Shown in pieces: positions 4,001-61,800 of a stretch of 64,000 bases of DNA (position 1 is the stretch's first letter; the number at the start of each line of letters is the position of its first letter). A program made the translations under genes and the position numbers. The notes under the pieces were generated by a model. That model worked only from the letters and a program-made list of their open reading frames with translations. It did not search any database and was not told the DNA's origin. Source of the DNA: Lingula anatina. Its lineage: Eukaryota > Animalia > Brachiopoda. The DNA lies in the NCBI GenBank assembly GCA_051362555.1, contig CM120640.1:7068001-7132000 (forward strand), read 5' to 3'.

Positions 4001-7000
4001 GTCACTTACTGTTCTCAAACAGTACAGTAAATATATATAGATGTGTCTGTACATATTGCCATCACCTGCTTCTGTCGTCGCCGTCATCGCCGTCGCCAGC
4101 GCCGTGCACTTTCATTGTAAACAAGATAAATGGAAGCCAGTTTTACTTTTTGGCTTTATATTTACAGAGCTGATGAATATTCATAAAACGCAGGTCAAGT
4201 TCAAAAATCAGCGTGATCAAATCTATTTTAGAAGTTATGCTGTTTTTTCACATTTCCTCAGATTTAATTCTTAGGCATGTTAACAGTTTCATTATTTAAT
4301 TAATAAGATACATAAAAGTGTTTGTTTGACATTTCCTGCATCTTTACAACATTGTTAGTTGATTTTGTAAAAATGATGGTAAACTTGTCATCGTGTATTG
4401 TGTAATAAAGTTTCAAAAATGGAAATAAACTCATATCATTGCAGTTTGTCAGATTCAATCATTCACATAATGTACTTTTGCATCACAAATGACAGTAGCC
4501 TATTTTGTGCATAGTTATTTCCTGTTTTTTGTCTGTACATTTGACAGCTTTGCTGCCTTGTTTATGACTATATTGATTATTTTTTTTATTATCTTAGCCC
4601 CTGTATCTTTGTTGATAGAGATTTTAAATCAATGTTTCATGCTGTCATTTAGAATTTTGCTTTGCTATAATTTCCCACCTACACTGCTTAACTTGTTTCT
4701 AATATCAACTACAGGCGGAACATACATATCCTTGAAGCTAGATTCCCTTTCCAAGTTTTAATTTTGCTATTTTTTTTAAATTGAAAAGCCACAATGAAAC
4801 AAATTAAACCATATTTATTTATTTATGTATGTTAATGATTATTATCATTGCCATTAAATAAATGGGCATTTTTATAATAGTATACACATGTTGAATATTT
4901 CTCCTAATTTTGCAGGGCACGGATATTTAATGCATGTAGCAAGAATGATGAAGACATTGGCTGTAGATTTTAACTTGGCTTTAATGGTAGATAAACAATT
5001 ACAGTCCAGTTGAATTTATACATATGTTGGATAAAGGGCTATATATCAAAAATTAAATAGACTTTTTTCTTATTTTTGTCACTCTGTAATAATCTTTTTT
5101 TGAATTATTAAGTACATATTTTAGACTTCTACACTGAATATAGGTACCAGTAATTCAGCCAGTATAATTATGCAGTATATATTGTATGTTAACAATGTAG
5201 CAGTAACTTCGAAGGTATTGGTATTAAGTTGACCACAGATATTAAGTTTGAATAAATATTTTGAGTTTTATGTTTGCATGTGGACTACATGTATATGCCA
5301 TGGTTACCAGACTTACACTACACATACAGATTGCTTCTCTTTATTTATTCAGACAACAAACAATGTAGTACAGGGAGAAGCTGGGGAGACCAAACCAGCC
5401 CTGGGACGTGCGTGGAGTCACATCCCTAATACCAGGGTGGAGATAAAGAAACAAGACATTACACCTGATGGTGAAAATAGGAGAACAGCTGTACTTACCA
5501 AATGCTCAAGACAGGTAAGTCTGTTCAGTGTGATGTTACAGGTGTAATATCACTTTACCAGCTGTAAATACACTATAGCTGTGGCTGTAAGTGCTAGGTA
5601 TTGCTTCGTTGGTGCTTAATAATTGTATGGTGTGTTGGTTAATTCGTAGGTTTTGTGGTTAATATGGGTATTAGCACTAAAAGATCTGTGGGTAAGGTTA
5701 GGAAAGGACTGTATCAGCCAGATTTTCATAAATTAGATAAATTACACTTCATTTAACACAAGCTGACAAGCTCAGGATTTTTATGTACAGACACAGATGT
5801 GTCTGTACATATTGCCATCACCTGCGTCTGTCGTCGCCGTCGCCGTCGATGTCGCCGTCGCCGTCGCCGTCGCCGTGCACTTTCATCGTTAACACGATAA
5901 GTGGAAGACAGTTTTACTTTTTGGCTTTATATTTACAGAGCTGATAAATATTTATAAAACGCAGGTCAAGTTCGAAAATCGGCATGTTTGGGCAATTATT
6001 GTAGAAGTTATGCTGTTTTTTCACTTTTTAGCTTATATGCAACACTGTTAACACATTTCAAGGAAAACCGATAGGCCTGTTGTCATGAAACTCACAGGAG
6101 TAATCAATCTCACTAAAACGCAGGTCAAGTTCGAAAATCAGCATAATCGGACCATTATTTTATAAGTTATGCTGTTTTTTCACATTTCCTCAGATTCAAT
6201 TCTTAGGCATGTTAACAGTCTCATTATTTAACTAATAAGATACGTAAAGGTGTTTGTTTCACATTTCCTGCATCTTTACAACATTGTTAGTTGATTACGT
6301 AAAAATGATGTTAAACCTGTAATCGTGTATTGTGTAATAAGGTGTCAAAAATGGAAATAAACTCATATCATTGCAGTTTGTAAGATTCAATCATTCACTA
6401 TGTTCAGAAACTCAGAATGGAGGAAATTGGACATTTGACACTGTTCTATTGATATTTTTCACATCTCATCAATTTTCTTAGTTGATCATAAAAAAATGGC
6501 AGTAAACTGTTAATTTTGTTTTATGTTAAAAAAGTGTTAAAAATGGAAATAAACCCATTTCAGAATAGTGCTGTCTTGTTTCACATTTCCTCAGATTCAC
6601 TTTTTAGGCATGTTAACAGTTTCATTATTTAATTAATAAGATAAGTAAAAGTGTTTGTTTGACATTTCCTGCATCTTTACAACATTGTTAGTTGATTTTG
6701 TAAAAATGATGGTAAACTTGTTATCGTGTATTGTGTAATAAAGTTTCAAAAATGGAAATAAACTCATATCATTACAGTTTGTAAGATTCAATCATTCAGA
6801 AACTCAGAATGGAGGAAATTGGACATTTGACACTGTTCTATTGATATTTTTTCCATCTCATCAGTTTTCTTAGTTGATCATATAAAAATGGCAGTAAACT
6901 GTTAATTTTGTTTTATGTTAAAAAAGTGTTAAAAATGAAAAAAAAAAAAAAAAAAAAAAACATTTCAGAACAGTGCTGTCTTGTTTACATTTTGGCATTT

Positions 7001-8077
7001 TCAAGTTGTGACTTTGAAGTTCCATGGGCCTGAAGACCTTTGCTAGTCACATTTTCTGAATATCCATAATACTAATATTTTATTATTAAAAATTGATGGT
7101 CATTATGCTGTTAAACGTTATGTAATATTGCATCAAAATTTGGAAAAAAAATATTTTGGGCACTGCTCCCATGATGACCATTTAAGAAAAATCATGTCAC
7201 TTACTGTTCTCAAACTTACAGGAAAGAAACATGGGACTAAAATACAGCTTCAGTAGGCAATGCAGTCTGTTTGGTAATTCTTTCTGCTAGTTAAACAGTT
7301 TTTTTTTGTGAAAATTTAATTTTTCACATATTGGCATTTTCAAGGTGTGACTTTGAAGTTCCATGGGCTTGAAGACCCATGCTAGTCACATTTTCTGAAA
7401 ATCCATGATACGTATATTTTATTATTAAAAATTGATGGTCATTATGCTGTTAACCATTATGTAATATTGCATCAGAATAGAAGAAAACACAATTTTGGGT
7501 GCTGCTGCCATGATGACCATTCTGGGAAAACCATGTTACTGATGATTGCCAAACGTTCAAAAAAGAAATACAGGACTAAAATGCAGCCTGAGTTGGAAAA
7601 GCAGTCTAATTGGCTTCTTTTTCCGGAAGTTATACATTTTCAAAGTGTGAACTTGAACTGCCATGGGCCTGAAGCCTTATGCTTGTTACACATTTTACTT
7701 ACATTGGTATTACCTGTTGAGCATAATTAAAATTTGATGTTGAATTTGCAGTTTAACATAATATACTTTTGCATCAGGATTGACAGTAGCCTATTTTGTG
7801 CATAGTTATTTCCTGCTTTTTGTCTGTACATTTGACAGCTTTGCTGCCTTGTTACATTTGGAATTGACTTGAATGAAAGTCACAGACTTGAAACAGACCA
7901 TGTGGCATAGGAAGAATATAGGAGAGCTAATCAATATAGCTGTTAGACTAGCACATGTGCATTTATTTTACAAAAGTATATGTTAAAATATAATAATTTT
8001 TTTCTTTATTGTAGCCCACTGGCCTGACAGCAGAGTTCACAATCACTCCATCTGGCATAGAAACATATCACAGCTGA
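1064..8077 (+). CDS. RAD51D: DNA repair protein RAD51 homolog D (RAD51 paralog), 8 coding exons
   Basis: Exons 1064-1326, 1515-1596, 1956-2084, 2230-2331, 2549-2639, 4916-4986, 5353-5514, 8015-8077 splice in frame. Translation gives MSLLKPGLSPVL..., Walker A GPAGVGKSQ, YIDSTG, Walker B LKLVIVDS and KPALGRAWSHIPNTR, all typical of RAD51D. The first coding intron uses a GC donor. A probable non-coding exon ends at 531 (G|gtaagt), with an acceptor at 1036. Confidence 0.93.
2836..4562 (+). mobile_element. Helentron-associated non-autonomous element (HINE/DINE-1-like), family A, in RAD51D intron 5
   Basis: 5' T-run, then subterminal IR atgtacagaca with an adjacent inverted copy (tgtctgtacat), a (GTCGCC)n microsatellite, ~159-bp tandem units (3008, 3167, 3327), a 3' subTIR tgtctgtacat, a short stem-loop cagc-ttt-gctg and a CTTGTT end. 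A second 5' module restarts at about 4041. Confidence 0.75.
5778..7853 (+). mobile_element. HINE/DINE-1-like element, family A, in RAD51D intron 7
   Basis: Same termini and (GTCGCC)n tract as 2836-4562, with different internal block duplications (e.g. ~6180-6580 repeated at ~6580-6990). Confidence 0.75.
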
Positions 8078-8529: not shown

Positions 8530-11500
8530 TTAATGTTTCTTCTTGTTTCTTATCCTTCTTTTCAGCAATAGCGTATGGATGATCACGTCCACAAATTCAA
8601 GCAAAGTTATTAAGCTGGCCCCAACAAATAGTCCTAGGGATCCACCAATGTCACCTAAAAAGAAAATAAACTGAAGTTAATGCATACCAGTTGAGAATGC
8701 GACATAATAAACGGTGCAATTCTGTTCTGGTGTGTAGCCGTAATCATTAGTAAAAACGCACATATTGGAATCTAACCGTAAGTTCCGGTCGTGTGCTTCA
8801 TTTAATGGACTGGTTTAAAAAATGAAGATAAAAAATTATGCATTCGAGAATACTGTCAGTTAACCTGGGAATTTGCGCTGTTGACATGGTTACTCTTTTT
8901 GTTGAATTTCAAAATTTAAGTGTTATGCATGAAATAACATTATTGTTAATTATGTAGTAATGTACAGTTTAATATCGAAAGTCACCCTAATCATCAAATG
9001 GAACCTTTTATCTAGATTGTTTCATAATATTGAGTTAATTAAAAATGAGGAAATTAAGAAGTCATTGAATTCTTATCGTGTCAACTGAACACAACAGTTT
9101 TAAATATCCGGCAAGGTTAAAGAAAGCGCTCCCGTCACTGCAAACGCTAGTAAATAACTTACTCCACAAGCTATTAGTGTCATAAGCTATTTGCTGCTTG
9201 ATCTCCTCGTAGCTTAACTCTTTCAGAAAAACATCGAGCTGGAGAAAATTTTCCCTGAAACAAAAATGGATCGAAGATTATTTAACCTAGGCACTGCAAT
9301 TCTATTATGGCATCTCAAAAGTAAACTTTACTATTCTATGAAAAAAGCACCGCTTCGTATGATGGCCAGTATGACAAACGAATTTTAGCTGTCTCCTGAC
9401 GTTGATTAGAATACTGAGAAACTGGTGATAGTACGAGTACGTCGCAAACAAGAAAAAGCTTGTTATTCCGTCAATCTTGTTGCATTCAGCGAGAGTCCCC
9501 TTGGAGTCGGTGCGCATTAGCTAGGTCGACATATCTCATTCTAACCAGTCCCTTAGTGGTTTGTTTCTTAAGTAAGTGTACAATAAATGTGATGGGAAAA
9601 AATTCTGTAAAATTTTCATTTATATTAGAGTGTTTTATTTCGTCCATATACTTAGTTAACTCACATAAAGAAGGTTGCGTCAATTGTGTTCTTCCTCTGA
9701 AACGAACCCAGTTGCTCTTGCAGTTTGAAAAAAGCAGATAGGAAAAGTTCATCTTTACTGCCAAGTGACATGTCAAGGTCGGCATGTTGTATTAGTCTCC
9801 CAATTTTTATGTCGATCTCTGCTGATTTGTTCTGTATGTCTATTTCTGCAAAATCTGCATTCGTGAGAACTTGAAGCCCCGGCATGGAGATATTGTCTAA
9901 TGAACCCCGTGGGTAGCGTAGCATTCTCCGGACAATGTCGAGCAGATAGGCACTATCTGATGTGTTTGAAAAAATATCGCGAACATCTTGGTGTATCTTC
10001 TGGTAAAAATTATCCAGAATAACTTCACTCATCATGTTCTGCCACATTTCAGTGTAAGCAAATTGATATTGATGGAGGCTGTCAAGCAATTCTCTACCTC
10101 TAGACCGCGCAGCCCCGAAGAAACGTTGCATATTCAGTAATTCTTCTTCGACGGCTGGCGACGTAAATGACACCGCAACTTCTGTCTTAGAAATGTTGTC
10201 GTGTTTTATGTAATCTTGCGCTTTGTCGATGGATTGTCGCAAAGTTATGGCGGCTGTCTTTCGCAGAGAACTCATATCTTGTAAGAGCTGGTCTATTGGC
10301 CATAGGACGTTCGCCATTGTTGTATGCAAAGTTTCGTTACATACATTAAATGTTTGCACTATGTTTTCCAACATTTCCTTTGGTTTAGCAACAATTCGAT
10401 CATAGATCATATACTTCCGATAAAGGAATTTCTTTGCCATGGAAATATAAGTATCGATACTGGTTTGATATAAAGTCTCATTGTGGGTTCCGTTTTCGAA
10501 TATTTGCTTTGCTACGAGACGCAAATTGTGCAGTGACTGTACATATAAACCTGAGTATTTCATTATATTTTCAAAATTATAATGAGTGTTCTTTAGATCA
10601 TGATGTAACAAATACAACGAAACATAGGTCATATCATAATGCCGATCGGGAGTCGTCAAATAGGTCAGAAGAGGGAACCCGTCAATGTAAGCCTCGTAAA
10701 CTTTTGTTAAATTAGCACGCGCCCTGTTGGCCAAACTAAGTTTTGTTAACAAGTTCGTGTCAACTATTTGAAATATGGCTTGACGAGAGCATGTGTCGTT
10801 ATGGTCTGTAGAACGCGCACAGTCCATCATGTGCTTGAAAAGATCATGAGTTTGGAAAAACCCTGTTGTCACATGAGAAAACGTCCTTTCATCCATCACA
10901 TTCCACCCTCTGATAAAATCATTATGATATGTGTGAACGCTTGCCGCAAGACCCCGGTCACTGTGAAAAGCAATTCTTAGCCTCAGTCTTTCCGTCATAG
11001 AAATAATGGTACTTTTGACTAACTCGAGAATAATTGTTATGTCATCAAAAAAGCGAAGTATATCTTCATATTTCTCCAACAAATCTTTAAATTTAGCCTC
11101 GTCGTCTGTGCGTATGGCCTGATCAACCTTTTGTCGAATTTCTCTTGCTTTGACGTATTTCTTTTGAAGCAGCTGTAAGCCTTCACTTCTCAGCCAGGTT
11201 TCTGTATTGAAATTAGAAATAGTGGCGTATGTGGTCGTCGTGTCGAACAGCGTTCTATTACAGGGTACTGGACACGGACACGCCTCAGCACTGCGTTCGT
11301 ATGTTTCTGAAAGTCATTGATTACATTAATTTATTTTATGTAACTTGCTAATGGCATATATGAACTTTTAAGCAAATCATTTAATCATGCAACTTCATTA
11401 CGATCTTTTGAACATTAGAAACCAAATTATACCGCGGCTCCAATGAAGACGGTTTGCGAAGCTCAATGAAGATGAAGAGGCAGTCAGCCAGTTTTGGTGC

Positions 11501-13159
11501 TTGTCTTAGCCATAGTTTTCCTCGTACTTAAACTTACCTAAACTGGGTCTCAAGCAAGTGGCGTAAGTTGACAGATTACATACAGAAGGGTACCCTAGGG
11601 AGAAGTAATAAAACGCGGATAATGTTTATATATATAAATTATATTGAACGTTAAAGGCAACAAGATTAAAGATACCATGTGACTTTTCCGATTTTTTTTT
11701 TTCATTTTAACATATATCTGTTCAGAAGTATTGTTAAGTTTAAACATCTATTTTAAAGTGTACATGCACACGATGCTTCCACGTAGAAGTGTATTGGATG
11801 CACAGTTGAAATAATCCTAAGAATACACAATATAAATGGAACAGATATTGTTACATTGCGGTAAAGACAACTGGTAGGCCTACCTGTATATATCTCCGGC
11901 ATGTAAAAGTCACGGCAACCACATTGTTCTACCACGTGTCTTGCCTCACAGTCCAGATCACAGGCTGGAACTGAATAATAGTCATAATACCTCAGCTCAC
12001 GACTGCCACATTTACCATGCGGAGGGATCAGGTTCTCCACCTGCAATTACACAGAGGTAATTTCTTTTATCCATTGGAACAATACGTGGTTTAGGAACGC
12101 TTGTTGGATAGTTGTAAATAGGGGCCTGTTTTACAACCAATAAGTTAATAAATAAAAAGACCCATTGGTCTTAACCTCAAACCTAAAATTTTGGTGTCGT
12201 TAAATTCGGTAATAATTTTATTACAGTTGACTACATCTGATCATTTGTATGTCAAAGTATAATAAAAGTATTTAAAAATAAAGACACATTTTCAGCCGTA
12301 AGTTTTTAAATAATAGCGACCCTGTGGTCAGCATTGCTTGTACATGTTCATGAGGAAAGGAGGTGCGAGAGGTTCGGTAGGTATTTGCAATAGGACACAA
12401 GTGGTATAATTTCAAACGGTTTCAACAGCTCTTCCGAGACGGAGAACTTTAATAAGATACAAATTACATATCTCAAGTACGAACCATTGTGAGCAATGCA
12501 TGAAACTGTTCTCTGCAAAAGATAAGCACTACTACAGAGAATTCGATCAGGTACCTAAGGGGCAACTAGGAAACGTTTCGCTGAAATAAAATACCTTAAT
12601 AACAGACATTCCCACGAAGGCGTGTGATCCTGGTGGTATGGCTTGCCCCAAATCCCGCACCAAGGGAACCTCGTGCTGCTCGTGTAAGAGAACTTTGAGG
12701 CCAGCAGAACTAAATGGACCGCTCATGTACTCATACTGTTCTATGTTGATTGTCAGCCTAAGACCGTGTTCAGCGCCTGAAATTATATGAGGCCCTCTTT
12801 ACGACTTCTGGGTGTTTCCAGATCTGCTATTCTCCACTCGACGCGCCTGTTTCATGAGCAGGTCCAAATAAACTGAATTAAAATAATTTGTTCTCTAGAA
12901 AATGAATTATGTCTGTTGGCCCTACTTCGAAATAATTCATAAGGTACTGATAACTGAATATTCACTATTGCCCAAAATTGTAAGTGTGGCATGCGAAAGT
13001 TTAACATGTTTGCAATATACCCGTTGCAAATGTATCACTTTCATTTTTAAATTCGTAACTGTTCATATCTGCAATATTAAGTCACGCTCAAAGTAGTCGT
13101 TATTTTATGCGATATGTGTACCAACCGTTTGGCGCAACAGTGTGTGTGTGTGCGCGCGC

Positions 13160-13190
<31 letters not shown>

Positions 13191-16100
13191 TGTGTGTGAA
13201 TTCCACCAAAATATCGCAGCATTTTGTCGTTGAAGTTTTAGACAGAAATTTATTAACTGTTATTTACTGTTTTCTCTTCGTTTCATTTTAAATAATTAAT
13301 ACACTTCAATACAAAGTTACTCATTTGACCCAATCCTAATTTGCTTAAAATCCTTTTTCTCTAGACGACGGTAAAAGCTGTCAATTCTAATCTGTTGATC
13401 TGCTCGGAATAAGGTTGGAAAGGTTTCAACCTCCCGGGGGATTGTTGATGAATTGCATGTGGATAATACATTTGTATAATGGTTACCTGATAACAACAGT
13501 GTTGAAGTGTCTCCTGCAATAGGTGTACCTCTCATGTTCATTAGCCAAGAAAGGTCGCTTTAATTCTAACATCAATATTTCAATAACAGAGCACATTGCA
13601 ATGCAAATCAAGGACAACCCCCAAGATGGAAGTACGCTGTGTTCATTGATAGTCCTGACATGTTGCCTCTTTCACACACAGGACACTTATCAGTGAACTC
13701 AACGTACTTTCGTTTTGGTAGTTTAACCCCCTGTAAATGATAACAAAGACAACTGTACTCTAGACCTACCTGTCTGAGCTGTTGTTCTAACGGGTTTGTT
13801 CCCTCCGTTGAAAGTGAAACAAATGCCGTGATCTGTTTGAATCCTCTCGAAGTCGGAGTCGGAACAAAGCTCGTTGTTCCAGCGGCAACTAAAATACAGT
13901 GCATACTTTTTATTTGCCAAACTTAATAACTTTTTAACATAAAAGCAACATGTATCCTTTTTAAAACTAAAATAAATTAAAAAATCTGAGATGAAAATGT
14001 ACATATTTTGTTGAAATCAAGTTCAAATCAAATATCTACTTTTGTATTACAGTGAGACTAGCTGTAAAAATCAGCGAGTATAGGGGTTACAGGCAAGGTA
14101 ACCGTACTGCAGGTGAGTACCTTAGTATCATATCTTCTTTGGTATGTGCATTTAGTTGGAATATGTCCCCTATCGTGCCATTTCTGGCTCTATCTGTGTG
14201 ATTCCCAGTGATCACACTCGAGTAAAGCTCATCTATTATTTCGTAGTGACCATTTTCCGCTGCTTTTGACATCCTGAAATACGTCCACAATCAGTATGAT
14301 GGTGGAATAGCATCCCCAACCAACAGTTAGTTGTACTTCCAATATTTTAACAAGAAGTAAAGGCTATTGTGACCTTCTACCAATTTTTTATTCGATGCCC
14401 ACAGATATCTATCTGGCTTTTCTGTGCATAGTTCATTACTGTACCAGTGAGATTATTTAATGACGTAATTATCACCTATCTAGCCTATCTGGTAGAGAAA
14501 AGTCCAGTACTGACATTCCAGATGAGCTTAACAAGCAGCCATCTTTATTTTACAGGCAAAAAGAAGCAATGCAGACTTTTTTCTTTAAGAAATAATCGCG
14601 GAGTAAAGCAAATTTTGACTTCGTATTACTTTTGGATAGCCATTAAAACTTGAATATATTACTTTTTAAGTTCTGAAAAAGAGTATGGGCCTTTGAAATT
14701 CACACAGTATCAGAAGTCTTTTCACTGATTATTTATATTATACCGATTTGATTGTTTGTACATCAGCTTACTGGAATAAATATAAGTTACAGTGTACACA
14801 CATTCCATGAAATAACTTACTTGAATGCGTTCAGGTTGCATATTGTAACGGCAGGGAAGGTTATTTTGTCAGCATAATTGATTTTGACGTTGACAGTGAC
14901 CGGCCAAGAGCGATAGTATATGACAGACTCTATCAGCTGCATTAGAAACAGACCGGCCCCAAGCAAAACCAGAAAAATCCATATAACTCTGAAAAACAAA
15001 CAAAGAACATGTCATCAATGCCTGATCCAATTCATTTTATACTGAAACTTCAAATTACATTCCGGTTTTTTTTTCGGGGGTTGGGGGTCGGGGTTGGTGT
15101 AATTCAATGGTAGATGGAACTTCTTTACTAAATGCACAATTTGTTTTTTTTTATCATTAGTATGAATAGAGACAACTGTATTAACAGATTAAAATAAAGG
15201 TTTATTAGCCTATGGTTTGCAAATTGGCATATCGTTTTGATTCAAATTTTGTATCTGATTGTACGCTTCGGGCAAACGTCAGGGCCGTAGCCTGAGCAAA
15301 ATGCCAGGGGGGGGGGGGCAGTAAGCGGACACAAAGGGGCGAAGCTACCGAGGGGGGTGGGTGTGGTGTGTAAAATTCCAAATTCCAGGGGGGGCAGCTG
15401 CCCCCCCTGCCCCCCCGGAGGCTACGGCCCTGAACGTTGTCTACATGTCCTACACATCGAGAGTAGAATGAGACCCATTAAAGGCGCCAATGAGAAACAA
15501 CACGAGTGGACTGATATTTAGTCAGCGAATGGTCGAAACTCGAACACATCAGCAATCATTAATAATTTACATGTTCTGAAGACAGCTACTCCTTTTCAAA
15601 GTTCACTTTGCAGGTTCAGCAGTTCCTTTAACAATGGCATTTCATCATTATACAAGCTACTAAATTCTTAAGTGTAAGGATATAAGCCTTGTCAAGATTA
15701 AACATCTGTGTCTCTAAATGTCACTAACCCTTTGAAATTGATTTACCAATCAACTGCAATTTTAACATTTAATGGCGTAAGGGGGTCGACACGTTAGAAA
15801 TGTCTACCTTATCCGCTTAGATACATGTAGTGCAGAAATATACATTATCATGGTTTGAGAAAATTATGAGATAACAACGTGGTCTAAGGTGTAAAAATTC
15901 TGAAAATTGGCATGACGCCTAGGGCGGTTCCACTGTTTGATTTTTCATTTTTTTTCCTCGGAGATATGGGCCACTTGTTACAGTGGTCTATTTAAGGTAG
16001 AGACATCACTTCGCCCTCTTCACTGATAAAACCAGAAGTAAGCCTTCCAGGAAATTTCCGACTTCCAGTACACTTGATGTTGTGATTAAAACGGTGTTGC

Positions 16101-19034
16101 TGGCTGTTCTGGTTTAAAATCAATATTACGGTTTTCCAAAACGCCGTTGTTATGTCATCAACTTATAATTGCAAATACTCCCGGATGTATTTTGATGCGA
16201 CAGCATAACGTGACTACGTGTACTTCCGCATTATCTACACGGGTAAAGAAAATTAATGGGGTATTTTCCAGAAAATGAGACATTAAAATCATACTCTGGT
16301 AATCGATCACAATAGTTCACCTACAAAATTTGGACCCTTTCCCTTTCAGAAATCTTAAGTGCTGTCACGTTTCATAAATAATGAATCTCTGACCATCTGC
16401 GAAAATCACATAGCCTACGGATGAGTGCACCTTAGACCAATCTAAACGAAACTAACTATTCTTGATGGAATTATTCATTATTTTGATGAGTCGAAATAAT
16501 TCCCATACAAATGTTATTTCCTAGTTAATTACTGTGTGTGAAAATGGATTATGACATATCTGCACGTGTACAAAAGACCTGGGAGAAAAATCTCGGGTTT
16601 CATAGTACTATTGTACCCTGAGGATACAAAACTGACTTAAATCTCCGCTAGCAAAGGGGTACTGGTTATGAAAGTGGGTTTACAACAGACCCTGTACCTC
16701 AGGGTACGGGGTGTTTGGAGGGGGGGGGGAGTAATTCAGTGGCAAATGCTTCCTCTGTTCAAACATGAACCATGCGACTGGGTGCTTCCATTAGTTGTCA
16801 ACTAGAGCTCAATCGATAATTTTATCTATGGCATAACAATAGCATGATTCAACATTCTTGGTGGCATTGGGGGCCACTTTTCTGTCTTATCTTGTCTTAT
16901 CAAAAAAAAAAAATCAAACTTCGTTATTGACAACAAATACGCATGATTTGCATATACCACATTTCAAAGATTCACAATCTGTTAGTTGTATAAAGAATAA
17001 TTAGATAACGACGCATTAAAGATAATAATGAGAGATGGGAATGGACTTCAATCGAGAAGCCTAGAAATACACAGGGTCCTTAAAAATGTTTTAACGACCA
17101 ATGTTTTAGTGTTTTTTTTTTTTTTTGTCTAATTTTACGGCGTAATCAGTGTCATTAAAATTGACGTTTTATATAGGGCTTATTGATTTATCCATACAAT
17201 AGAGTAAGCTGTAAGAGAAACCTTTTTCATCATAAAGTATTATAACATGGGATTTTGAGAGAAATGCGATCACAAACAGTGCTTCGCTTCAAAGCTTTTG
17301 AAAGCACAGGGGCGTTTTAGTCTTTTTAAAAGTAGACTAAAATATTATTCATAACTTTGTCACATATCCATTAAAAAGGGAGGATAAATGATATTTTAAT
17401 ATTAAAATATATATTCAGACATCTTCAAAACTAGCCGTTAACCTCATTTACTATCTAAATATTTGGCGAGTTTGATGTTAAGTTCCATAAGGCCACACTT
17501 TTTTATTTTTATGGATGACATCCTCTGGGGACCCCAAAGTCGGTGCGAGCTGGCGAAAAAAAAAAAAAAACAGTCCAAAAAAAAAAAAAAAACTGCTTAA
17601 GAAAAGTTATGTTTTCAGTACACAGCTGGAAACACTAATTTACCACAGAAACACGTATCAAACTAACAACATGTCTTTATCCATGCTCTCAAAATATTAA
17701 AGCATTGTGAATAGGGCCTACCTCGTAGAAAGGTAAAAAGTCATGAATATATATGCTGCATATTACCAAATCTATTTAAGGTTATTTCATGCATTCTGTT
17801 GGTATAGAAACCAATAAAACAAATATCAAATAAATAGCGTGTCTTTATTTGTACTCTCAGAAAATTAAAGCATTGTAAACACTTCACAGAATTGTTTAAA
17901 AAATTAAGCAAAGATAGGCCTATGCTTCCTACTACTAAGGTAATTTCGGTCGATGCCATTTTGTCTACTTCGACTCACACGCTAGCAGCCAACTATCGGG
18001 TGGCCTTATATTTAGACCAAATTTAGACCAAATACCGCGACGCTCTTGTCGACCCTTTTTTCGCTCCAAAAAGAAACTGGTATGTGCTGCTTTGGACAGA
18101 ATGTCACTGAAATTTTCCGGGCGATGATTGCTGGCCGCGGCCAGCCTTTCGTAAAATTGTAAAAGGGTGATATCTCCATGTCCAATATCAATGGCAAACC
18201 AATCCAAAACGACGGCCCCCGTTCTCTTTATGACTTTAATTGTCGTGTATTTTGAAATTAATGCTAGAGATGAAGTTGACGGCAAAACGGCCATATTTCC
18301 ATGTGGTGATAATACGCATGCGCAGAAAGCTCATTTTCCACACTCGGAACTACTCGGATGTCTCCGCAGTCGACAATGACAGTATGGAGCTTGCGGAATT
18401 AGCAGAGAATTGCCGATTGCATTTTCCGGCAAATTCAATAACGATGTTTGCGACAACCGACTTCCTTTGGGGGGGGGGGGGGGGGGGGGGGGCGGTTTGG
18501 GGGGGGGGGGGATTTTTTTTTTTTTTTTTTTTGGAGAACGGACGAAAATCGGTGCGCGCGCAGGATGTCATCCATAAAATTAAAAAAGTGTGGCCTAAGC
18601 AGAAATTTGTCACTATAATTCGCCTTACGTTTTCCCAATATATCAAATGCATACAGTATATGCATATTTATATACAACTGCTTAAGTGAAATGTTGTCAG
18701 TCGTGAGAAACTCGTTACATCGAGCGCTTATGGTGCCCGTAAAAAAATTCAGAGCAATCCATTGTCGAAAGTTATGAATTTTCAAACATTTTCAAGCATT
18801 TTTTAAATTTTTATGATTTCCAAACCTTCTCAGCATAAAAGGCGTGTCTTCAACTATCTTCCCAACTCCATGGAAAGTGGTCACGGTGCTGAATGTAGCA
18901 AATGCACTCTTCCACGTTGGCTCCTCTTCACTCTCCTCCTCTTTCGCTTTGAAGTCCGTGTCTATAACATTGACTCCGTAACTAAAATTGCCGTTCAAAT
19001 TTTTCTTTACTTCAGGCAAGTTGTTAAGTTCCAT
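8530..19034 (-). CDS. DEG/ENaC (ASIC-like) sodium channel subunit with ~500-aa extracellular insertion, copy 1 (967 aa, 10 coding exons)
   Basis: Exons 19034-18826, 14988-14821, 14273-14121, 13888-13770, 12776-12595, 12040-11884, 11594-11538, 11306-9665, 9254-9163, 8654-8530 total 2904 nt with GT-AG introns. Motifs: TTFHG, TM1 VIWIFLVLLG, FPAVTICNLN, GICFTFN, GLRLTINIEQYEY, a Cys-rich thumb, ENFLQLDVF, and TM2 SDIGGSLGLFVGAS. Confidence 0.93.
13141..13198. repeat. (TG)n(CG)n(TG)n alternating purine-pyrimidine tract
   Basis: Directly visible 58-bp tract in intron 4 of channel copy 1. Confidence 0.9.
15280..15432. mobile_element. 153-bp MITE
   Basis: TIR cagggccgtagcct / aggctacggccctg, flanked by the direct repeat aacgt (15275-79, 15433-37). 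G-rich interior. Confidence 0.8.
17491..18595. mobile_element. Non-autonomous PIF/Harbinger-like DNA transposon, 1.1 kb
   Basis: ~34-bp TIRs (ggccacacttttttatttttatggatgacatcct / aggatgtcatccataaaattaaaaaagtgtggcc) with a TAA target-site duplication on both sides. Not seen in intron 1 of the paralog. Confidence 0.85.
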
Positions 19035-28884: not shown

Positions 28885-43490
<14,606 letters not shown>

Positions 43491-48135: not shown

Positions 48136-51100
48136 ATGGAACTTGACAATCTGGCTGAAGTCAAGAAAAAATTAAACGAGACTTACAACTACGGTGTCAA
48201 TGTTATAGACACGGACATCAAAGGGAACGAGGAGGAAAGTGAAAGAGAACCTACATGGAAGAGTGCATTTGCTACATTCAGCACCGCGACCACTTTCCAT
48301 GGAGTTGGGAAGATAGTTGAAGACACGCCTTTTATGCTGAGAAGGTTTGGAAATAATATGATTGCACCAAAAATTATATACTTATTCACTTTGAAAAGAA
48401 TGGAATGTTCCTAACCTTCTGCCCTGCTTTGTTTTACGGCTACAAAAACCGGTCATTGTAAGGAGATTCTCGTTGTTCAGAATATTTTATTTAATGCTTA
48501 GCACAATTTTACACGGCTGTATATGTGTGCAAGATGTCGGGAAAAGCAGCTTTTAAGCTGATATGATGCCGAAAGTCATAGTGACAAATTCATTAAATTC
48601 TTATAGAATGAACAAATTTTACATCAAATTCGTCAAATGTCTGGATAGTAAGTAAGGTCAATTATATCAGTGGCTAGTTAAAAATGTATCTGGTTAGATT
48701 TTTTAATTATCTATCTATTCTATCTATTCAATCTAAAGTAAAAGTTGTCGAATTTATAATTTTCATATCTACTCTATTTTTACGCATACTTACAGGTTGC
48801 AAAGCTTTGAAGCGAAATGCACCATTTGTTTCCACATTTCTGATGGTATAATTTCAACGTCCCATGCTACGTCAGGCACAATTTATATGAAAAAACATTA
48901 TATTACAGCGCAATCTATTGTATGCACAACTCGATAAGCGTTACAAAAGCAGCCAAGAAAACTAATAAAGAAAATTGACTTTTTAAAAATAAGTATCGAT
49001 CAAGTTCTAGTTGGTAGTTAATGAAAGTACCTGAGTGCATTGTTCTTGTCAGAACAGAGGAAGCATTCGCCAATGAATCACCCTCCCAAACAACTCAGAC
49101 CCTGAGATATTCAGACCATGCATTTTGGTTGTCAATGACGAAATTTGCTTTTGTTTGAACTGGATAAGGCAGAAAAATCGCCCCCTATGCCGCCAAGAAT
49201 GTTGAGTGGTGGTATTGTGATGGCATAGATAAAATATCGATTCAGCTCTAGTTGACAGCTAATGGAAGCACCGGGGTGCATGGTTTATGTTTGAAGAAGC
49301 ATCCCCCGTTGACCCCCCCCCCCCCCCCCCTTAAAAAAAAACCCCGCACCCTGAGATACGGTCTGTTGGAAACACTTCCATAACCAGTACCCCTTTGCCA
49401 TCTTCAATGGCAGAGATATGCTGGGTAGATACAAATCGGTATTCGAAAACACAGGGTTCCTTAATACTTTGAAACTCGATGTATTTCACCCATGTCTGTA
49501 ATATACGAGTCGGATATGTCATAATCCATTTTTACCCACAGTAATTAACTGGGAAATGGCCTTTATCTGGAAATTATTTTGGCTGAATTATATTTTCAAA
49601 TCATCAGTAATTGTAAGTTTGGTTTGAAATACTTTATGATATACTCATCCGTATGAGATTTTCGCAGATTGTCTTCGATTTATTATTGATGAAGCGTGAC
49701 AGCAGACACTTAAGGGCACTCAAAATATAAAGGCAAAAACAGGCGTTTATGTAAACTTGTGTCCAATTACTGCGATTGATTACTATACTATGTCACGTTT
49801 AAAAAAAACCTTAATTGTGGGGAAAATACAAAAATTGAAAAAACACGAACGAGAGACGAGATTAATTTTGTGCGGGTCGATTAATTCATAAAACACATAA
49901 TGCTGAAGGCATTTTGAATTAATAATAAAGGCAAAATTTACCTTAGGCATCAAGGAATAAATGTTCAAAAATCCGTTTTTGGTAATCTGTCTCTCAATCA
50001 AAAACAAGGCCAGTTGTCAACAGATCATTGTAGTTTGGGAGAAAACGTGAAAAGGAGACTTCAGCTGATCTGCTATTATAATATAGGTTGCTTCTGCTCC
50101 AAGTCATAAAACATTGTTAAAGGGGTTCCACCCGCCATCGAATTAAACCAAAATTTAAACGCCTTTTATTTGAACAAAATTCCCATCAAAAATACATTTC
50201 ATCCTGCATTAACAACATGTTTTTTTTTCAGAGTTATATGGATTTTTCTGGTATTGCTTGGGGCTGGTCTGTTTCTAATGCAACTGATAGGGTGCGTCGT
50301 ATACTATCGCTCTTGGCCGGTCACGGTCAACGTCAAAATCAACTATGCTGACAAAATTAACTTTCCTGCCGTTACAATATGCAACCTGAACGCATTCAAG
50401 TAAGTTATGTCTTAAAATGTATGTGGACTGTAACTTAATTCCAATTAGCTGATGTACAAACTTTAAATCCGAAATTTAATATTTTAATGAAACAACCAAT
50501 GAAGAAGATCTTGACTTTATGCGAGTTTTTTAAGCACCATTCAGTGTTTTAAAATACGTATGCCACGTTATAAGTTTGAAGACTATTCAAAATATACACA
50601 AAGACAACATTGTTTAAATGGTTGGTTCAACTTGGTTGGGTCCCAAACAATGCTTACATTATTTCTTTTTACCTCCAAAATCAATGGCTATTTGGTGAGT
50701 TTAACGGGAGGGTGCTAGACAACTCGAGGTCTCCACCACATGCCAGTTGGATGATGACGTCTTTTTCTTAAAAAATACGATTATCGCTGGAAAGACAGTA
50801 CAGTACAATACATCTACATGTATGCGCACAGAATATGATGTATTGATTGAAATATCTATCAATTAAAAAAATTGTGATTCTGGTGGAGAGTAGTACATGT
50901 TCTAGACTATATTTCTTGTTAAAACATTGAAAGTACCGCTGTTGTTTGGTGACGACAGTCCACCTTCATACTAATTATTTACACTCTACCAGGGCCGCGG
51001 ATTGATTTTTTACTAGATATTAACGAATATGTCACTGGTTAAATAGATGACTAATGTCTGCAATCTCTCCGCCTCAACAAATATGTCCACAATAATAATT

Positions 51101-54100
51101 GCGGCCCTGGTAGACGGTACTTATTATAACCGTATTTCAGGATGTCTAAGGCAGCAGAAAATGGCCACTACGAAATAATAAACGAACTTTACTCGAGTGG
51201 GCTCTCTGGGAATCACACAGACAGAACCGGAAATGGCACGATAGAGGACTTATTCCAACTAAATGCACATACCAAAGAAGATATGATATTAAGGCACGCA
51301 CATGATACGTTACCATATTTTCCTCAAACCCCTTTACTTTCTCATTGCTACGAGTATTCTGGTTTTAATACAGAAGAAAACATTCGTTTTAAACAAAACA
51401 CAAATTTTTCTCAGCAGTTTTCATTTATCTTCAATTGTAAAGGGATACACCCTGCTGTAACGTTACAGAGAAGTTTGGAAAATAAAAAGTGTATATTATG
51501 TGTTATCTTATAGTTGCCGCTGGAATAACGGTATCTGTTCCAATTCCGATTTCGAGAAAATTCAAACAGATCATGGAATTTGTTTCACTTTCAATGGAGG
51601 AAATAAACCCGTTAAAACAACAGCTCAGACCGGTAAGTCTAGATCACGGTCGTCTTTGTAACCATTCACATTGTGATGTGTTATGTAATTGATATTAGAA
51701 TTAAAGCCACCCTTTATGGGTAGTGAATCCATTTCCTTTACGTACACATGTTATTCAGGATTGTTGAAACATTTTCATTCTTAATTCCCATTAAAACGAC
51801 AGATAATAATTGGCAGCTTTTACCATCTTTTTGTGCAAATAAGGATTTGGCCAAAATAGCTAAATTTGCGAAAATAAATACCCGGCAAATGAATAAATAA
51901 CAAGAAAAGGAAAAACTTGCTTTTATTTTAATAAATTTCTGTCAAATGCATCAGCGACAAAGGGTGATATCTTGGCGCAATATGAGGTATTTATACATCT
52001 ACAGTATGTACAGCGTTACTCAAAAAGGCGAGATGGATGTAGAATAGCAGATCTGGAGACATCCAGAAGTACGTAAAGAGGGCTTCATATGATTTCAGGC
52101 GCTGAACACGGCCTTAGGCTGACAATCAACATAGAACAGTATGAGTACATGAGCGGTCCATTTGGTTCTGCTGGCCTCAAGGTTCTCTTACACGAGCAGC
52201 ACGAGGTCCCCTTGGTGCGGGATTTGGGGCAAGCCATACCACCCGGATCACACGCCTTCGTGGGAATGTCTGTTATTAAGGTATTTTGAAACGCTCCCTT
52301 ATTGCCAGTTAGGAACTTGATCATAACTATTTTTCAGTAATTAGCACTTACCCATTGACTTGTTGATTCTAAGATAATGACTTCCTTTAAAACTATTCAG
52401 CTCGTGTAGTAGCCTACTGTATGCCTGCAAGAGAAACGGCCCCTTGTTGCCCTTTAGGTACCTGATCATAAAAATCTCTCGGATAAAATTGTATTAGCAC
52501 CTGCCGTTTATAGGAAGTAAAAATTTAGATAATGGTGTGTTTTTGAAATTATGCAACTTCTTCAAACCTTCTGCCTATAACCCTATAACAAGGTACTTTT
52601 AAAATGGTAATTCCAGCATGTGAAACCATATAACCTGCATCCTATTCTAAATACCTGTCGGACCCCTTGGACCTCTCTCCCGCACAACCAATGCTTGGTC
52701 AGTTTCGAACCTCGGAACGAAAATTGGTTTTAGATTATAGTCTTATATTTTCAGTCTATTTTATACATGATAGAACAGTAGTCAACTAATATGGAAATAT
52801 AAGGATTATCGCCGAATTTAATGAGACCCAACTTTTTGGTTCTGAAGTTATGACCAATTTAAGTCTGATTCATTCATTCTTTCATTCATTTATTTGTTGG
52901 TTAGTTGGTTGTGGAACCTGTCCCTGTTTACAACTATCCACAAAGCGTTCCGAAAACGTTTTGTCTGGACGGTTAAAAGAAATTACATCCGTGTAATTGC
53001 AGGTGGAGAACCTGATCCCTCCGCATGGTAAATGTGGCAGTCGTGAGCTGAGGTATTATGACTATTATTCAGTTCCAGCCTGTGATCTGGACTGTGAAGC
53101 AAGACACGTGGTAGAACAATGTGGTTGCCGCGACTTTTACATGCCGGAGATATATACAGGTACCAGTTGTCTTAACCACAATGTAACAATCTTTGTCCAA
53201 TTTGTATTATGTCTTTTATGGAGTATTTTAACTGTGCATCCAGAACACTTCAGCATTTAATCATCGCGTGCACTTAATATACTTTTTTTGAAAAAGGAAT
53301 GACTTAAAGTTACAATTCTTCTGAACAGTTGTTGTTGTAAAAAAATGAAAAAATCGGAAAATTTGGAAAAATCACATGATTTGTTTAATATTTTGTATTA
53401 ACGTTCAACATCATTCATAACTTCACCCTAGGGCACCCTTCTGTATGTAATCTGTCAACTTACGCCACTTGCTTGAGACCCAGTTTAGGTAAGTGTACGA
53501 GGAAAACTGTGGTTAAGACGAGCAGCAAAACTAGCTGACTGCCTTTTCATCTTGAGTTTCGCAAATCGTCTTCATTGGAGCCTCGTTTTTTCCTAATGTT
53601 GCATTGAATATATCTATTCAATCTAAATGACATAATTTGCCATTAGCAAATGTTACAGAAATTTAAAAGAAGTTAATTGCTTTCAGAAACGTACGAACGC
53701 AGTGCTGAGGCGTGTCCGTGTCCAGTACCCTGTAATAGAACGCTGTTCGACACGACGACCACATACGCCACTATTTCTAATTTCAATACCGAAACCTGGC
53801 TGAGAAGTGAAGGCTTACAGCTGCTTCAAAAGAAATACGTCAAAGCAAGAGAAATTCGACAAAAGGTTGATCAAGCCATACGCACAGACGACGAGGCTAA
53901 ATTTAAAGATTTGTTGGAGAAATATGAAGATATACTTCGCTTTTTCGATAACATAACAATTATTCTCAAAACAGTCAAATCTTCCATAAGTACTATGACG
54001 GAAGAACTGAAACCAAGAATTGCTTTTCACAGTAACTGGGGACTAGAGTCTAGCGTTTTCACATATCATAATGATTTTATCAGAGGGTGGAATGTGATGG

Positions 54101-56288
54101 ATGAAAGGACGTTCTCTCATGTGACAACAGGTTTTTTCCAAACTCCTGATCTTTTCAAGCACATGATGGACTGTGCGCGTTCCTCTGACCATAACGACAC
54201 CTGCTTTCGCCCCGCTGTTTTTCACATAGTTGACATGAACTTGTTAACAAAACTTAGTTTGGCAAACAGGGCACGTGCCAATTTAACAAAAGTTTACGAG
54301 GCTTACATTAATGGGACCCCTCTTCTGACCTTTTTGCGGACCCCTGAGCGGCATTATGATATGACATATGTTTCGTTGTATTTGTTACATCATGATCTTA
54401 AGAACACTCATGAACATTTTGAATACATAATGAGATACTTAGGATTATATATACAATCACTGCACAATTTGCGTCTCGTAGCAAAGCAAATATTTGAAAA
54501 TGGAACCCACAATGAGACTTTGTATCAAACTAGTATCGATACTTTTATTTCAATGAGTAAGAAATTTCTTTATCAGAAGTACATGATTTATGATCGAATT
54601 GTTGCTAAACCAAAGGAAATGTTGGAAAACATAGTGCAAACATTTAATGCATATAACGAAACTTTGCATACAACAATGGCTAACGTCCTATGGCCAATAG
54701 ACCAGCTCTTACAAGATATGAGTTCTCTGCGAAAGACAGCCGTCAAAACTTTGCGACAATCCATCGACAAAGCGCAACATTACACCAAACACGACAACAT
54801 TACTAAGACAGAAGTGGCCGTGTCGTTTACCTCGCCAGCTGTCGAAGAAGAATTACTGAATATGCAACGATTCTTCGGGGCCGCGCGGTCTAGAGGCAGA
54901 GAATTGCTTGACAGCCTCCATCAATATCAATTTGCGCACACTGCAATGTGGCAGAACATGATGGATGAAGTTATTCTGGATAATTTTTATCAGAAGATAC
55001 ACCAAGATGTTCGTGATATTTTTTCAAACACTTCAGATAGTGCTTATCTGCTCGACATTGTCCGGAGAATGCTACACTACCCACGGGGTTCGTTAGACAA
55101 TATCTCCATGCCGGAGCTTCAAGTTCTAACGAATGCAGATTTTGCAGAAATAGACATGCAGAACAAATCAGCAGAAATTGACATAAAACTTGGGAGACTA
55201 ATACAACAAGCTGACCTTGACATGTCACTTGGCAATAAAGATGAACTTTTCCTATCTGCTTTTTTCCATCGTCAAGAGCAACTGGGTTCCTTTAAGAGGA
55301 AGAACATGATTGAAGCAACTTTCTTTATGTGAGTAAGTTAGGTAAACGGATTTAACGCTTAAAAACCATTAATAACCACACGTTAAGAAACCATTCAATA
55401 TAATTCGAACTCGGCCTTGGGCTCACTATAGATAAGACCTACTATCCAAAGAAAGAGAACCTAAGCTGTCACTCGGGTTTGATGTCCACCAAACGAAGTC
55501 CGCAGAGCCCGTTAGTGACTTCTAGTTAAATCCAGTTTTTTCGTGCTTTCATTTGAAGAAATCATTATAATGTACTTGAAAGCTTATGTAATCATCCCTT
55601 TTCGTTCCAGGGAAAATTTTCTTCAGCTTGATGTTTTTCTGAAAGAGTTAAGCTACGAGGAGATCAAGCAGCAAATAGCTTATGACACTAACAGCTTGTG
55701 GAGTAAGTTATTTAATAGCGTTTGCAGTGACGAGAGCGCTCTCTTTAACCTTGCCGGATATTTAAAACACTGATGAGTTCAGTTGACACGCAAACATCTT
55801 TTTAATTTCCTTGATTTTTTTTAGTTGACGGCGTATTATGAAACTACAATTTAGATATTAGGTTTCATTTCATGAAGGGCAAAATTAACAGTCAATGGCC
55901 TGTTGCTCGGCTGAACGTCGCTGAAAGCGTGTTTGGTGATAGTTGCTAAATCGACCGCTTGAGCTGAATTTTCATTGCTAAACATTATGGCTTGCATAAA
56001 TATAAGAAAATAATTTGCTATAACAGACGTCAACGGTAGAAATCCCTTAAAACGTCAATATTCTAAGAAACATATGTTTATGGTAGATATCTATGCGTCA
56101 ATTGTTTAACCATTGTAATACATTTTAGTAACTTAATACAACGTTTCTTTCTTTTGTTTTCAGGTGACATCGGTGGATCCTTAGGACTATTTGTTGGGGC
56201 CAGCTTAATAACTTTGCTTGAATTTGTGGACGTTATCATTCATACGCTATTGCTGAAAAGAAGGATAAGAAACAAGAAGAGACACTAA
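48136..56288 (+). CDS. DEG/ENaC (ASIC-like) sodium channel subunit with ~500-aa extracellular insertion, copy 2 (967 aa, 10 coding exons)
   Basis: Exons 48136-48344, 50232-50399, 51141-51293, 51514-51632, 52099-52280, 53003-53159, 53432-53488, 53687-55328, 55611-55702, 56164-56288 all match copy 1 in length. HG, FPAVTICN and GAS motifs are intact. The exon 3 donor is GC. Confidence 0.92.
50985..51114. mobile_element. Small MITE-like insertion in intron 2 of channel copy 2
   Basis: Inverted repeat tctaccagggccgc / gcggccctggtaga. Absent at the homologous site of copy 1 (~14280-14300). Confidence 0.65.
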
Positions 56289-58840: not shown

Positions 58841-61800
58841 TTATGACTTAAATATCCTTACAGCTCTCACAACATACTGTCTACATATGGGGCACTCTGA
58901 CATCCGTTTGCCACAGTTAGTACAAGTCACTGAATGTCCACACTCCAGTAACACACAGTCCACTGTATGGTCCATGCAAATCTTGCACAGTGAGTCTTCA
59001 GGATTGCTTTCCATCCTAGTAGTGCTGGGTTTGTTGCCTGGAAGAAAAGATGTTCAATACCAATGCATTTCCAAGTTCCAAACTGGGCAAAAACCATTTT
59101 TTTAAATCTGGGGAATTAAGAATATTTACCTACACATCTAAACACCACATATTATAATGGCTATGAGCCATAAAATATTAATGTTGTGCTTTTTTTAACT
59201 TCCAACATAAATCTTGTCAAAATGTCTTTTATTTCTTACTTGTATATAGAAAATTTCAAATTAATGTAAGTCTTTACTGATTTCAAAAGGATCTCATGTA
59301 CTTCTAAATGCATAAACTTGTACAGGTACCTTGTTTCTCAGCCAGGCTGTGTATTTCTTCAGCTATTGAAAAATGAAACAAAATGTTGAAGAAATCAAAA
59401 TAAAAACATAAATATTAAAATCAATCTAAGTTTGAAAAATTTCAGTGCTTAATGTGATAAAACCTAGTGCACTAATGGAGTAAATGTGAAAACTGATACA
59501 ACAGTAACACAGGACTAGATTTGTGAACTCTCTCCTTTTCACTAGTCTCATGCAGAGAAAGAATTACTGACCTATGATCTCCACAAGTGTTGTCATATAA
59601 AAATACAGTGTGCATCAAATTAGGTACAAGAAAATCCTTACCTTTTCGTTGATTTTCTCTATATAATAAGACAATGAAAATACTTACCTTTTTTCTGATT
59701 TTCTTTATGTGACTGCCAAAGCCTCTTGGCCTTGTCCACCAACTCCCACTTCTCCACACAACCTTTATAATCCACAAAGTTGGCTGCCAGTAGTTCCTTG
59801 AGTTGCCGTGGAGACAAGGTGTCAATCTGCTCAATGTCATCTATGGCACTAAGTCTCATCCTTACATGTGGAGCTCTAGGGTCTGGTTCCTCCTGAATGA
59901 ATGAATCAAAATGTAAATAGATCTACAAGTAATATTGTAACTAAAACAAACAGCACTGATCTATCACAAATGTATTTTTTTAGGTTGTCATGCTTAAAAA
60001 AATTCATAATAAAATAATTTATTGTTATATACCTAACAGTAGTAGTAATAAAATGCAGATTTCATGGTATAAGTCAATTTCAGATAATTACAAACTAATA
60101 TTGTTGGAGGCAGTGTATGAGAGAAACTCAGTGACCTCATTATGTGCATTTTTCTTACATCACTGTCCATGAACCAATCATTCCCAATTCTCTCTTCAAG
60201 ATTTCTTCTTTCTTGCTCCTGCCTCCTCCTCAGTCTCTCATTTCTCTCCTCATCCGACTCCTGGTGGTTCAATTGTGTTGGAGGAGATTGCTCAGAATGT
60301 GTTGGTTGAGCTGGGGTTGGTTCTGGTGGTGGTACTGTGGAATGTGTGTCACTGTGCTCAATGTGTTCACTGCTGCTCTCATCAGATGATGGCACAGACT
60401 CCCTGTCATCTTGTACTTCATTTTGTAGTCTATGTTCCTGGCCACAACAAAATTAACAAATCTATAAATAAATTATTAAATAAAGAACAAAAAAAAAAAA
60501 AAAAAAAACAGCTGCCCCTCCCCCATGACAATCTCAATCTGCCAGTGTAAATAATGCAACAATTCAAACCTGGGATTGCATGCAGAAATAGGCAGTGTAT
60601 TAGGAGATAAATCTTATTCAATTTCATGCAAAGACATCTGCTTTTACAAACCTAAACACTTACTTTTAACACTTCTAAATGTCTTCGGTGTTCCTCTTGT
60701 TCCTCCAAGTATGACTGGTTGCCAGAGTGCCTCAGTATAAGCTCCACTAAATCATTCTTCTCCGTGCATCTTTGGTATTGTATCACATGTTTGTTAAGGT
60801 ACACTTTTAAGTCTTTCAGTCTGAGATCCATCAGTGTCTGTCTGTCAAACTGCTTGGAGGCAAACATCTGACAAAGTTGACATCTACGCTTGTTAAAAGT
60901 TACTCTAGTGAGACATGCTGAGCAGTGGTAGTTACCGCAGTCTAGGCAAATTCTCTGAAATAGTAAAACTGAAATTTCTAAACAGCTCAGAGTTTTTTTT
61001 TTGTGTAGATTGTTCAAATATGAATAATCTGAAGATAAAACACATCTATAGCGTATATAACCAATATGCCCTTGCAGGAGCCACTTCCTAATGCCCCTAT
61101 TTCACACAGACCACGAATACCACGAATTGCCAGGAATTGACAAATTTCAGGATTCGTAAGGATTCGTGAGATTTTGCAAATTTTCTGGCCTAATTTGATA
61201 CACTCTACGATTCAGTTACGATACAGGTGCGATAGTGTTATGAATATTTGTGGGATTCAGCTGGAATCGCACGAATATTGTCAAAAAAAGCACTACGATT
61301 TTTTGGAATCGTGACTTCATGGCCAAAATTTTGAACTGCTCAAAATTTTTGCCACGAATTCCCGATTGATCAAGAATTGCAAGAACTGACTGCGATTATA
61401 TACGAATCTGTTAAGAACTTCACGAACTGATTACGATTCAACCACGAATCCTGAAATTTGTCAATTCCTGGTGATTGGTGGGATGTGTTGTCTGTGTGAA
61501 ATAGGGGCATAAAAGAACTTTAGTCCAGTCTAAATGTTAAGACCAAAACTGTAGTTCTTTTTCACTATCTAATGCTAACTCAGTGGTATTAAACCAAATG
61601 AGATACCATGCCTGTTTTATAACAAGAAAGAAGTGGTTTTTGGATCAATGATTTTATTCTATTTAGTGAACTACTGTACATTGTTAAAACCAGCTAGGCC
61701 AGGCATATATTTCTCCACTCAGCCCTCTACCATTTCCAGTGAGTGGCCTCTCAAACTCAAGGTGGGCGTACATGTGTATCAACATGCTTCAATTAAATAA

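Follow-up and report, generated by a model that had tools for sequence, protein, structure and literature searches.

The question raised by this locus is why a DEG/ENaC channel should carry, within a single exon, some 500 residues between the thumb cysteines and the second transmembrane helix (TM2). Comparison of the window (the whole 64,000-nt stretch of Lingula anatina DNA analyzed here) with itself shows that it holds two inverted copies of one 10-exon DEG/ENaC gene. Joining the exons at AG/GT sites, with one GC donor in copy B, confirms spliced products of 967 aa for both copies, which agree in all exon lengths and are 91% identical as proteins. Copy B is identical at 958 of 967 positions to a protein annotated as 'uncharacterized protein LOC106170158 [Lingula anatina]' (P0001). 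The main features are as follows.

48136..56288, + strand: DEG/ENaC gene, copy B; 967 aa from 10 coding exons
48136-48344, 50232-50399, 51141-51293, 51514-51632 and 52099-52280, + strand: exons 1-5 of copy B
53003-53159, 53432-53488, 53687-55328, 55611-55702 and 56164-56288, + strand: exons 6-10 of copy B
8530..19034, - strand: DEG/ENaC gene copy A, exon lengths as in copy B, 967 aa
53687..55328, + strand: exon 8 of copy B, 1642 nt; end of the thumb, β10, α6, insert and start of α7
9665..11306, - strand: exon 8 of copy A, 1642 nt
53779..53802, + strand: knuckle helix α6, predicted to be kept, residues 380-387 (DSSP on the model)
53803..55314, + strand: insert of copy B, predicted all-helical, 504 aa, residues 388-891, between α6 and α7
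9679..11190, - strand: insert of copy A, counterpart of the copy B insert
54004..54666, + strand: predicted distal four-helix bundle, about residues 455-675, with many conserved polar and aromatic residues
55611..55702, + strand: exon 9 of copy B; end of α7, β11-β12 and top of TM2
56164..56288, + strand: exon 10 of copy B; TM2 (DIGG motif, GAS belt) and a short C-terminal tail

Exon 8 is flanked by AG and GT and is an open reading frame in both copies. Its coordinates (53687-55328 on the + strand and 11306-9665 on the - strand) bear out the single 1642-nt exon of the preliminary description, as does its span, which runs from just before CPCPVPC in the thumb to ...FFM|ENFLQLDVF. Differences between the copies are concentrated at residues 437-473 and 557-604, and the insert is under purifying selection between them (dN/dS of 0.29 for the insert and 0.16 for the core).

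The protein is assigned to PF00858, and this assignment, the ASIC1 match and the predicted model all place it within the DEG/ENaC architecture of two TM helices and an ectodomain of palm, β-ball, thumb, finger and knuckle. We infer that it forms a trimer and conducts cations. The match to ASIC1 in the PDB (207 bits, E = 3.5e-60) covers residues 27-137, 164-374 and 890-956 only, and the full model superposes best on ASIC1 as well (Z = 33.9, r.m.s.d. 12.1, 375 aligned). As in ASIC1 and ASIC2 (6ave, 9e4d and 6l6p; PF00858), the thumb cysteines, the HG motif (H55-G56), the DIGG motif of TM2 (D928) and the GAS belt (17 of 21 rows) are kept, and α6 and α7 are predicted to be in place. Unlike in those channels, 504 residues lie between α6 and α7, so that by alignment count 563 residues separate the last thumb cysteine from the TM2 aspartate, versus 66 in chicken ASIC1 and 66-94 in 10 ordinary relatives. 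The finger is indeed short, as had been noted, with 59 residues from cysteine to cysteine versus 80 in ASIC1. PMC10507113 names a wrist histidine (H73) and a palm lysine (K211) as proton determinants of ASICs. V100 and Q215 stand at these sites here, and among the family rows with residues there, histidine occurs in 0 of 16 and lysine in 1 of 18. Because ASIC1 is the best match and yet the proton residues are missing, we regard the channel as an ASIC-like DEG/ENaC that is not an ASIC. The published Lingula ASIC is listed as OIST g20471.1 and called a singleton.

By similarity the Lingula protein stands with BASIC/ASIC5 (9mky) on the ASIC/BASIC side of the superfamily (177 bits, Z = 26.8), but BASIC has 505 aa and no insert. 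FaNaC and WaNaC (7yvb and 8on7) are likewise lophotrochozoan DEG/ENaCs, but they are not the closest by similarity (127 and 80 bits, versus 207 for ASIC1) and, at 600-680 aa, have no comparable insert. For the brachiopod DiaaNaC, compared by description only, no insert is mentioned in the accessible portion of PMC11750451. ENaC (6bqn and 6wth; 114 bits) offers a different kind of likeness, in that an extra domain at the apex (GRIP), which regulates gating, also marks its subfamily; ENaC's addition, however, is on the finger side and protease-regulated, whereas that of the Lingula channel lies in the knuckle and is predicted to be all-helical.

The preliminary description had the insert replacing the knuckle, a view that has to be revised. 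The model keeps β10 (365-376), α6 (380-387), α7 (892-898) and β11, with residues 388-891 between α6 and α7, and because both helices are retained the insert appears to expand the knuckle loop from within. Its composition is as first reported: proline is scarce (2.0%, versus 4.9% in the core), 12 of 13 segments tested show a hydrophobic period of 3.5-3.8, in keeping with heptad-like periodicity, and the copy B insert has 11 sequons and that of copy A 9. Over 111 family inserts, 828 sequons are seen versus 411 expected from composition, and N547-x-T is present in 79 of 102 rows. The C-x9-C pair (C511-x9-C521) is found in both copies, but does not hold as a family trait. A conserved disulfide of this spacing was rejected, any C-x9-C being present in 3 of 111 inserts.

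AlphaFold predicts the insert with confidence, both within the full-length model (119 sequences; pLDDT 86.8, with ten-residue blocks over the insert at 82-98) and alone (102 sequences; pLDDT 96.0, pTM 0.88), and thus as ordered rather than disordered. The predicted structure is all-helical, with helices at 411-494, 500-514, 522-557, 586-620, 625-716 (one break) and 732-794 (one break), followed by shorter helices as far as 886; by DSSP on the model the longest have 84 and about 90 residues. Residues 470-663 superpose on four-helix up-down bundles, with a de novo bundle best (Z = 14.2); talin and α-catenin bundles (Z = 10.8-11.7) score as well as chemoreceptors such as the ligand-binding bundle of PcaY (Z = 11.3, r.m.s.d. 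2.9, 142 aligned). The two-tier TorS sensor matches loosely over model residues 11-519 (Z = 8.5, r.m.s.d. 5.7, 208 aligned), and TorS and TTYH2, which match from end to end at lower scores (Z = 8.5-8.6), fit a second, channel-proximal bundle. The insert is thus probably two stacked four-helix bundles, and the length of an 84-residue helix (1.5 Å per residue) would give it a height of ~12-13 nm. A folded helical module, spliced in and placed on the apex of a DEG/ENaC subunit, as first proposed, agrees with these predictions. Three of them may, as also suggested there, come together as a single bundle above the pore.

All of these structural matches are within the range of generic helical bundles. 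The up-down geometry is shared with Tar/Tsr/PcaY, TorS, talin and catenin bundles (Z = 8.5-11.7), but identities are 2-12% and the likeness is best taken as analogy, with no homology shown. Foldseek with the insert model returned nothing at E ≤ 1e-3 among PDB and viral models, the best ESM Atlas hit had a TM score of 0.41 (no match to the feature) and a VIA-wide structure search gave only generic four-helix bundles, a lack of match that is no proof of a new fold. Pfam on exon 8 yielded no more than a weak edge of ASC and coiled-coil families below threshold. A profile of the insert against PDB sequences found generic helical bundles only (best 6e-6, a designed three-helix bundle) and no match to bacterial 4HB or HBM sensor domains.

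How widely is the insert distributed? The insert alone (513 aa) matches 216 clusters (50% identity) at E ≤ 1e-3, and 57 at 1e-30, among 1.84 billion representatives. Among the best 150 of the 216 matches, the thumb cysteines lie upstream in 45 of 46 testable cases and β11/TM2 downstream in 17 of 18, and no free-standing donor of the insert was found. Named carriers among 20 looked up are Lingula, Capitella, Tubulanus, Lineus, Haliotis, Pecten, Mytilus, Ostrea, Littorina, Lottia, Elysia and Plakobranchus, with Dimorphilus as a cluster member; a separate protein search adds Mya, Saccostrea and Octopus. Word-index protein searches, which are insensitive, gave 1, 24 and 26 matches. Most matches are nameless, and the true range may be wider than the named brachiopods, annelids, nemerteans and molluscs.

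Insert length is 462-526 aa in 21 of 21 rows and falls into two subtypes, one of 491-526 aa and one of 462-474 aa that is without residues 791-832. The short subtype includes all molluscan rows, nemerteans possess both, and several insert-bearing paralogs are found per species. In a tree of channel cores from which the insert was cut out, 16 insert-bearing cores group together on one side of a branch (support 94/98, 95% of bootstrap trees); the outgroup is 13 other rows, few in number and with no reference ASIC, BASIC or HyNaC, and 7 of 36 rows whose cut points could not be located were left out. Exon 8 ends at the column of M896, and exactly there 76 of 100 fragment ORFs also stop (64 of them on arginine or lysine), as expected of read-through at a splice donor, which argues that the intron position after the insert is old. 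By sequence, then, these proteins constitute an uncharacterized brachiopod-annelid-nemertean-mollusc DEG/ENaC subfamily, defined by an unnamed knuckle domain, and we hold it very probable that the gene, the family and the folded domain are real. Two fragments, P0082 and P0093, have flanks that are not channel-like.

For the function of the insert, the reading that we favor (rough probability 0.4) is that of a sensor of a ligand or partner coupled to the gate. The insert is joined via α6 and α7 to the strand leading from the thumb and to the strand leading to TM2, and we infer that it alters channel gating. A ligand or partner outside the cell would bind where the two bundles meet, at a hub of conserved polar residues, and shift the long helices of the insert; these would pull on α6/α7 and thereby on β10/β11 and the neighboring finger, and the shift would open TM2. 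Three considerations favor a sensor: (i) 23 polar residues reach 70% conservation or more despite overall identities of 17-35%; (ii) paralogs are numerous and the differences between copies A and B are clustered and (iii) contacts between knuckle and finger serve ligand binding or the collar in related channels. For the last, PMC11026163 describes how the knuckle helix of the neighboring subunit in FaNaC helps to form the peptide pocket, and PMC6197857 describes knuckle-finger contacts at the apical collar of ENaC. Among the conserved positions are R459, H463, R481, E488, R489, R523, R/Y/D571-573, Y783, D789, N831 and D833 (70-98%), and many of them would lie near the junction of the two bundles, a clustering estimated from helix lengths only. 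By analogy, the likeness of the distal bundle to chemoreceptor ligand-binding domains would also count for a sensor, as would the loose fit of the module to the two-tier TorS sensor. Against this, the fold matches are generic, with de novo bundles best and talin and catenin equal to the chemoreceptors; the conserved polar residues could instead stabilize the fold or form trimer contacts; and the abundance of sequons fits an attachment to the surroundings at least as well, as does a Thr-rich loop of 215 aa that P0096 carries near residue 810. In addition, α6 of the FaNaC knuckle is relatively static during gating (PMC11026163).

Following closely, though in itself rather unlikely, is a mechanical role, in which the insert is a tether or lever to cuticle, mucus or matrix and its displacement gates the channel without separate link proteins. 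For nematode MEC-4, separate extracellular link proteins have been proposed. The long and predictedly rigid helices would suit such a lever, as would sequons at twice expectation with the recurrent N547-x-T, the loop of P0096 and the generic likeness to talin and α-catenin. That loop, however, is missing from the proteins of the window and the short subtype lacks 791-832 altogether, the talin likeness does not leave the generic range, and the core is ASIC-like rather than ENaC-like.

Less likely still is a structural or regulatory cap that drives subunit assembly, bridges a synaptic or epithelial cleft or keeps the channel closed for as long as it is present, while finger or thumb receive the gating stimulus, as in other DEG/ENaCs. 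The axis would be crowded by three domains of 500 aa on top of the knuckle collar, the static α6 of FaNaC agrees with a passive role, and the hemichordate channels P0167 and P0172, which have a different and shorter insert at the same knuckle site, indicate that this site tolerates passengers. Conservation across four phyla, together with the set of conserved polar residues and the two subtypes of length, nevertheless exceeds the needs of a spacer.

Returning to the favored sensor, we give slightly less than even odds to the broader proposition of a lophotrochozoan-wide, previously unrecognized subfamily with its own 12-nm sensor domain and no detectable donor, in which binding or pulling gates the pore via the knuckle. 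No description of the insert, or of a characterized DEG/ENaC subfamily with it, was found in the open literature, with most subscription journals outside this coverage. PMC10507113 notes uncharacterized lophotrochozoan DEG/ENaC groups, and insert-bearing sequences are present in its dataset as fragments. The words 'knuckle' and 'insertion' appear once each in the main text, in other contexts. Fragmentary sequences, together with an alignment trimmed in gappyout mode, which would drop the insert, may explain why it seems unremarked. The subfamily bears on how DEG/ENaC channels gain new gating stimuli and on whether force sensing needs a tether: a single exon adds a predicted self-folding domain of 500 residues, about doubling the ectodomain, in animals that include Octopus, oysters, mussels, Platynereis and Capitella. 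If the proposition is true, gating via a knuckle domain would be a route that no DEG/ENaC is described as using, and chemical or touch senses of molluscs and annelids that are so far unassigned may depend on it. The clean predicted boundaries of the insert make deletion and domain-swap tests in oocytes direct.

The length of exon 8 is 1 mod 3 and the exon carries β10, and it could therefore not be skipped cleanly; only one internal donor-like site passed a simple scan. In supplementary file 1 of PMC10507113, the Lingula transcript ORF comp141642_c0_seq1 (491 aa) extends from exon 4 over the joint of exons 7 and 8 and reaches into the insert. The seq2 ORF takes up at about residue 710 and covers the rest of the protein, exons 9 and 10 included; residues ~671-709 are in neither ORF. 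Platynereis transcript ORFs in the same supplement show the same joins. Inclusion of exon 8 at both ends is thus evident in published Lingula transcript ORFs.

Raw reads from four RNA runs with the same species label were placed on copy B coordinates. Run X1 has one-stranded reads, at a depth of 0.2-2.9, in five bins over 53831-55385, but no reads in the bin with the first 143 nt of exon 8; run X4 has reads in two bins of exon 8, and runs X7 and X5 have none over it. The sole listed splice joint is that of exons 1-2 of copy B (6 reads), with no exon 7-8 or 8-9 joint listed in these four low-depth runs, a depth too low to prove or exclude skipping of exon 8. That most of exon 8 is an intron, or a neighboring gene fused in by gene prediction, is nearly excluded already and highly improbable: the read joints at both of its ends, the residues between the two transcript ORFs and reads in its first bin are missing, but both junctions are crossed by Lingula ORFs and joined alike in Platynereis, gene models from four phyla repeat the architecture, the position of the intron is conserved and selection is purifying. 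Where reads near the 3′ end of exon 8 show differences, they match copy A at 12 of the 13 listed places.

Copies A and B of the channel gene differ unevenly along their length, with 97-99% identity in exons 5-7 and 86-93% in exons 1-4. The database protein P0001 (LOC106170158 of Lingula anatina) is otherwise B-like and carries A-type residues at position 51 and, in the stretch encoded around window 55260-55320, at 876, 877, 889 and 891, and an A/B mosaic pattern is also seen in published Lingula transcript ORFs from supplementary file 1 of PMC10507113. Taken together, the mosaic protein, the mosaic ORFs and the higher identity of exons 5-7 suggest gene conversion or allelic mosaics.

The donor of intron 3 in copy B (window 51294-51295) is GC, and its copy A counterpart is GT. 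In two RNA reads, a copy-A-type exon 4 start is spliced to position 51293.

Other genes and repeats occupy the following window positions:
1007-1381, + strand, RAD51D N-terminal exon, flanking the channel gene pair
2835-7853, repeat patchwork with a 159-bp unit among its components
33546-35172, 11-copy array of a 146-bp satellite
36476-36853, + strand, exon of a cytochrome P450, located between channel gene copies A and B
39967-43160, 22-copy array of the 146-bp satellite
60655-61101, - strand, RNF34/RFFL SAP-domain exon, flanking the channel gene pair

In two DEG/ENaCs of the hemichordate Ptychodera flava (P0167 and P0172), the corresponding knuckle position holds a different insert of ~180 aa, with no convincing similarity to the 504-aa type (hhalign probability 41). 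The long knuckle insert of Lineus longissimus P0162 (948 aa) is strongly diverged, and its match to the family profile is confined to the first ~110 residues (probability 91). In P0096, another database relative, the insert carries a Thr/Glu-rich, mucin-like loop of 215 aa (residues 484-698) near insert position 810.
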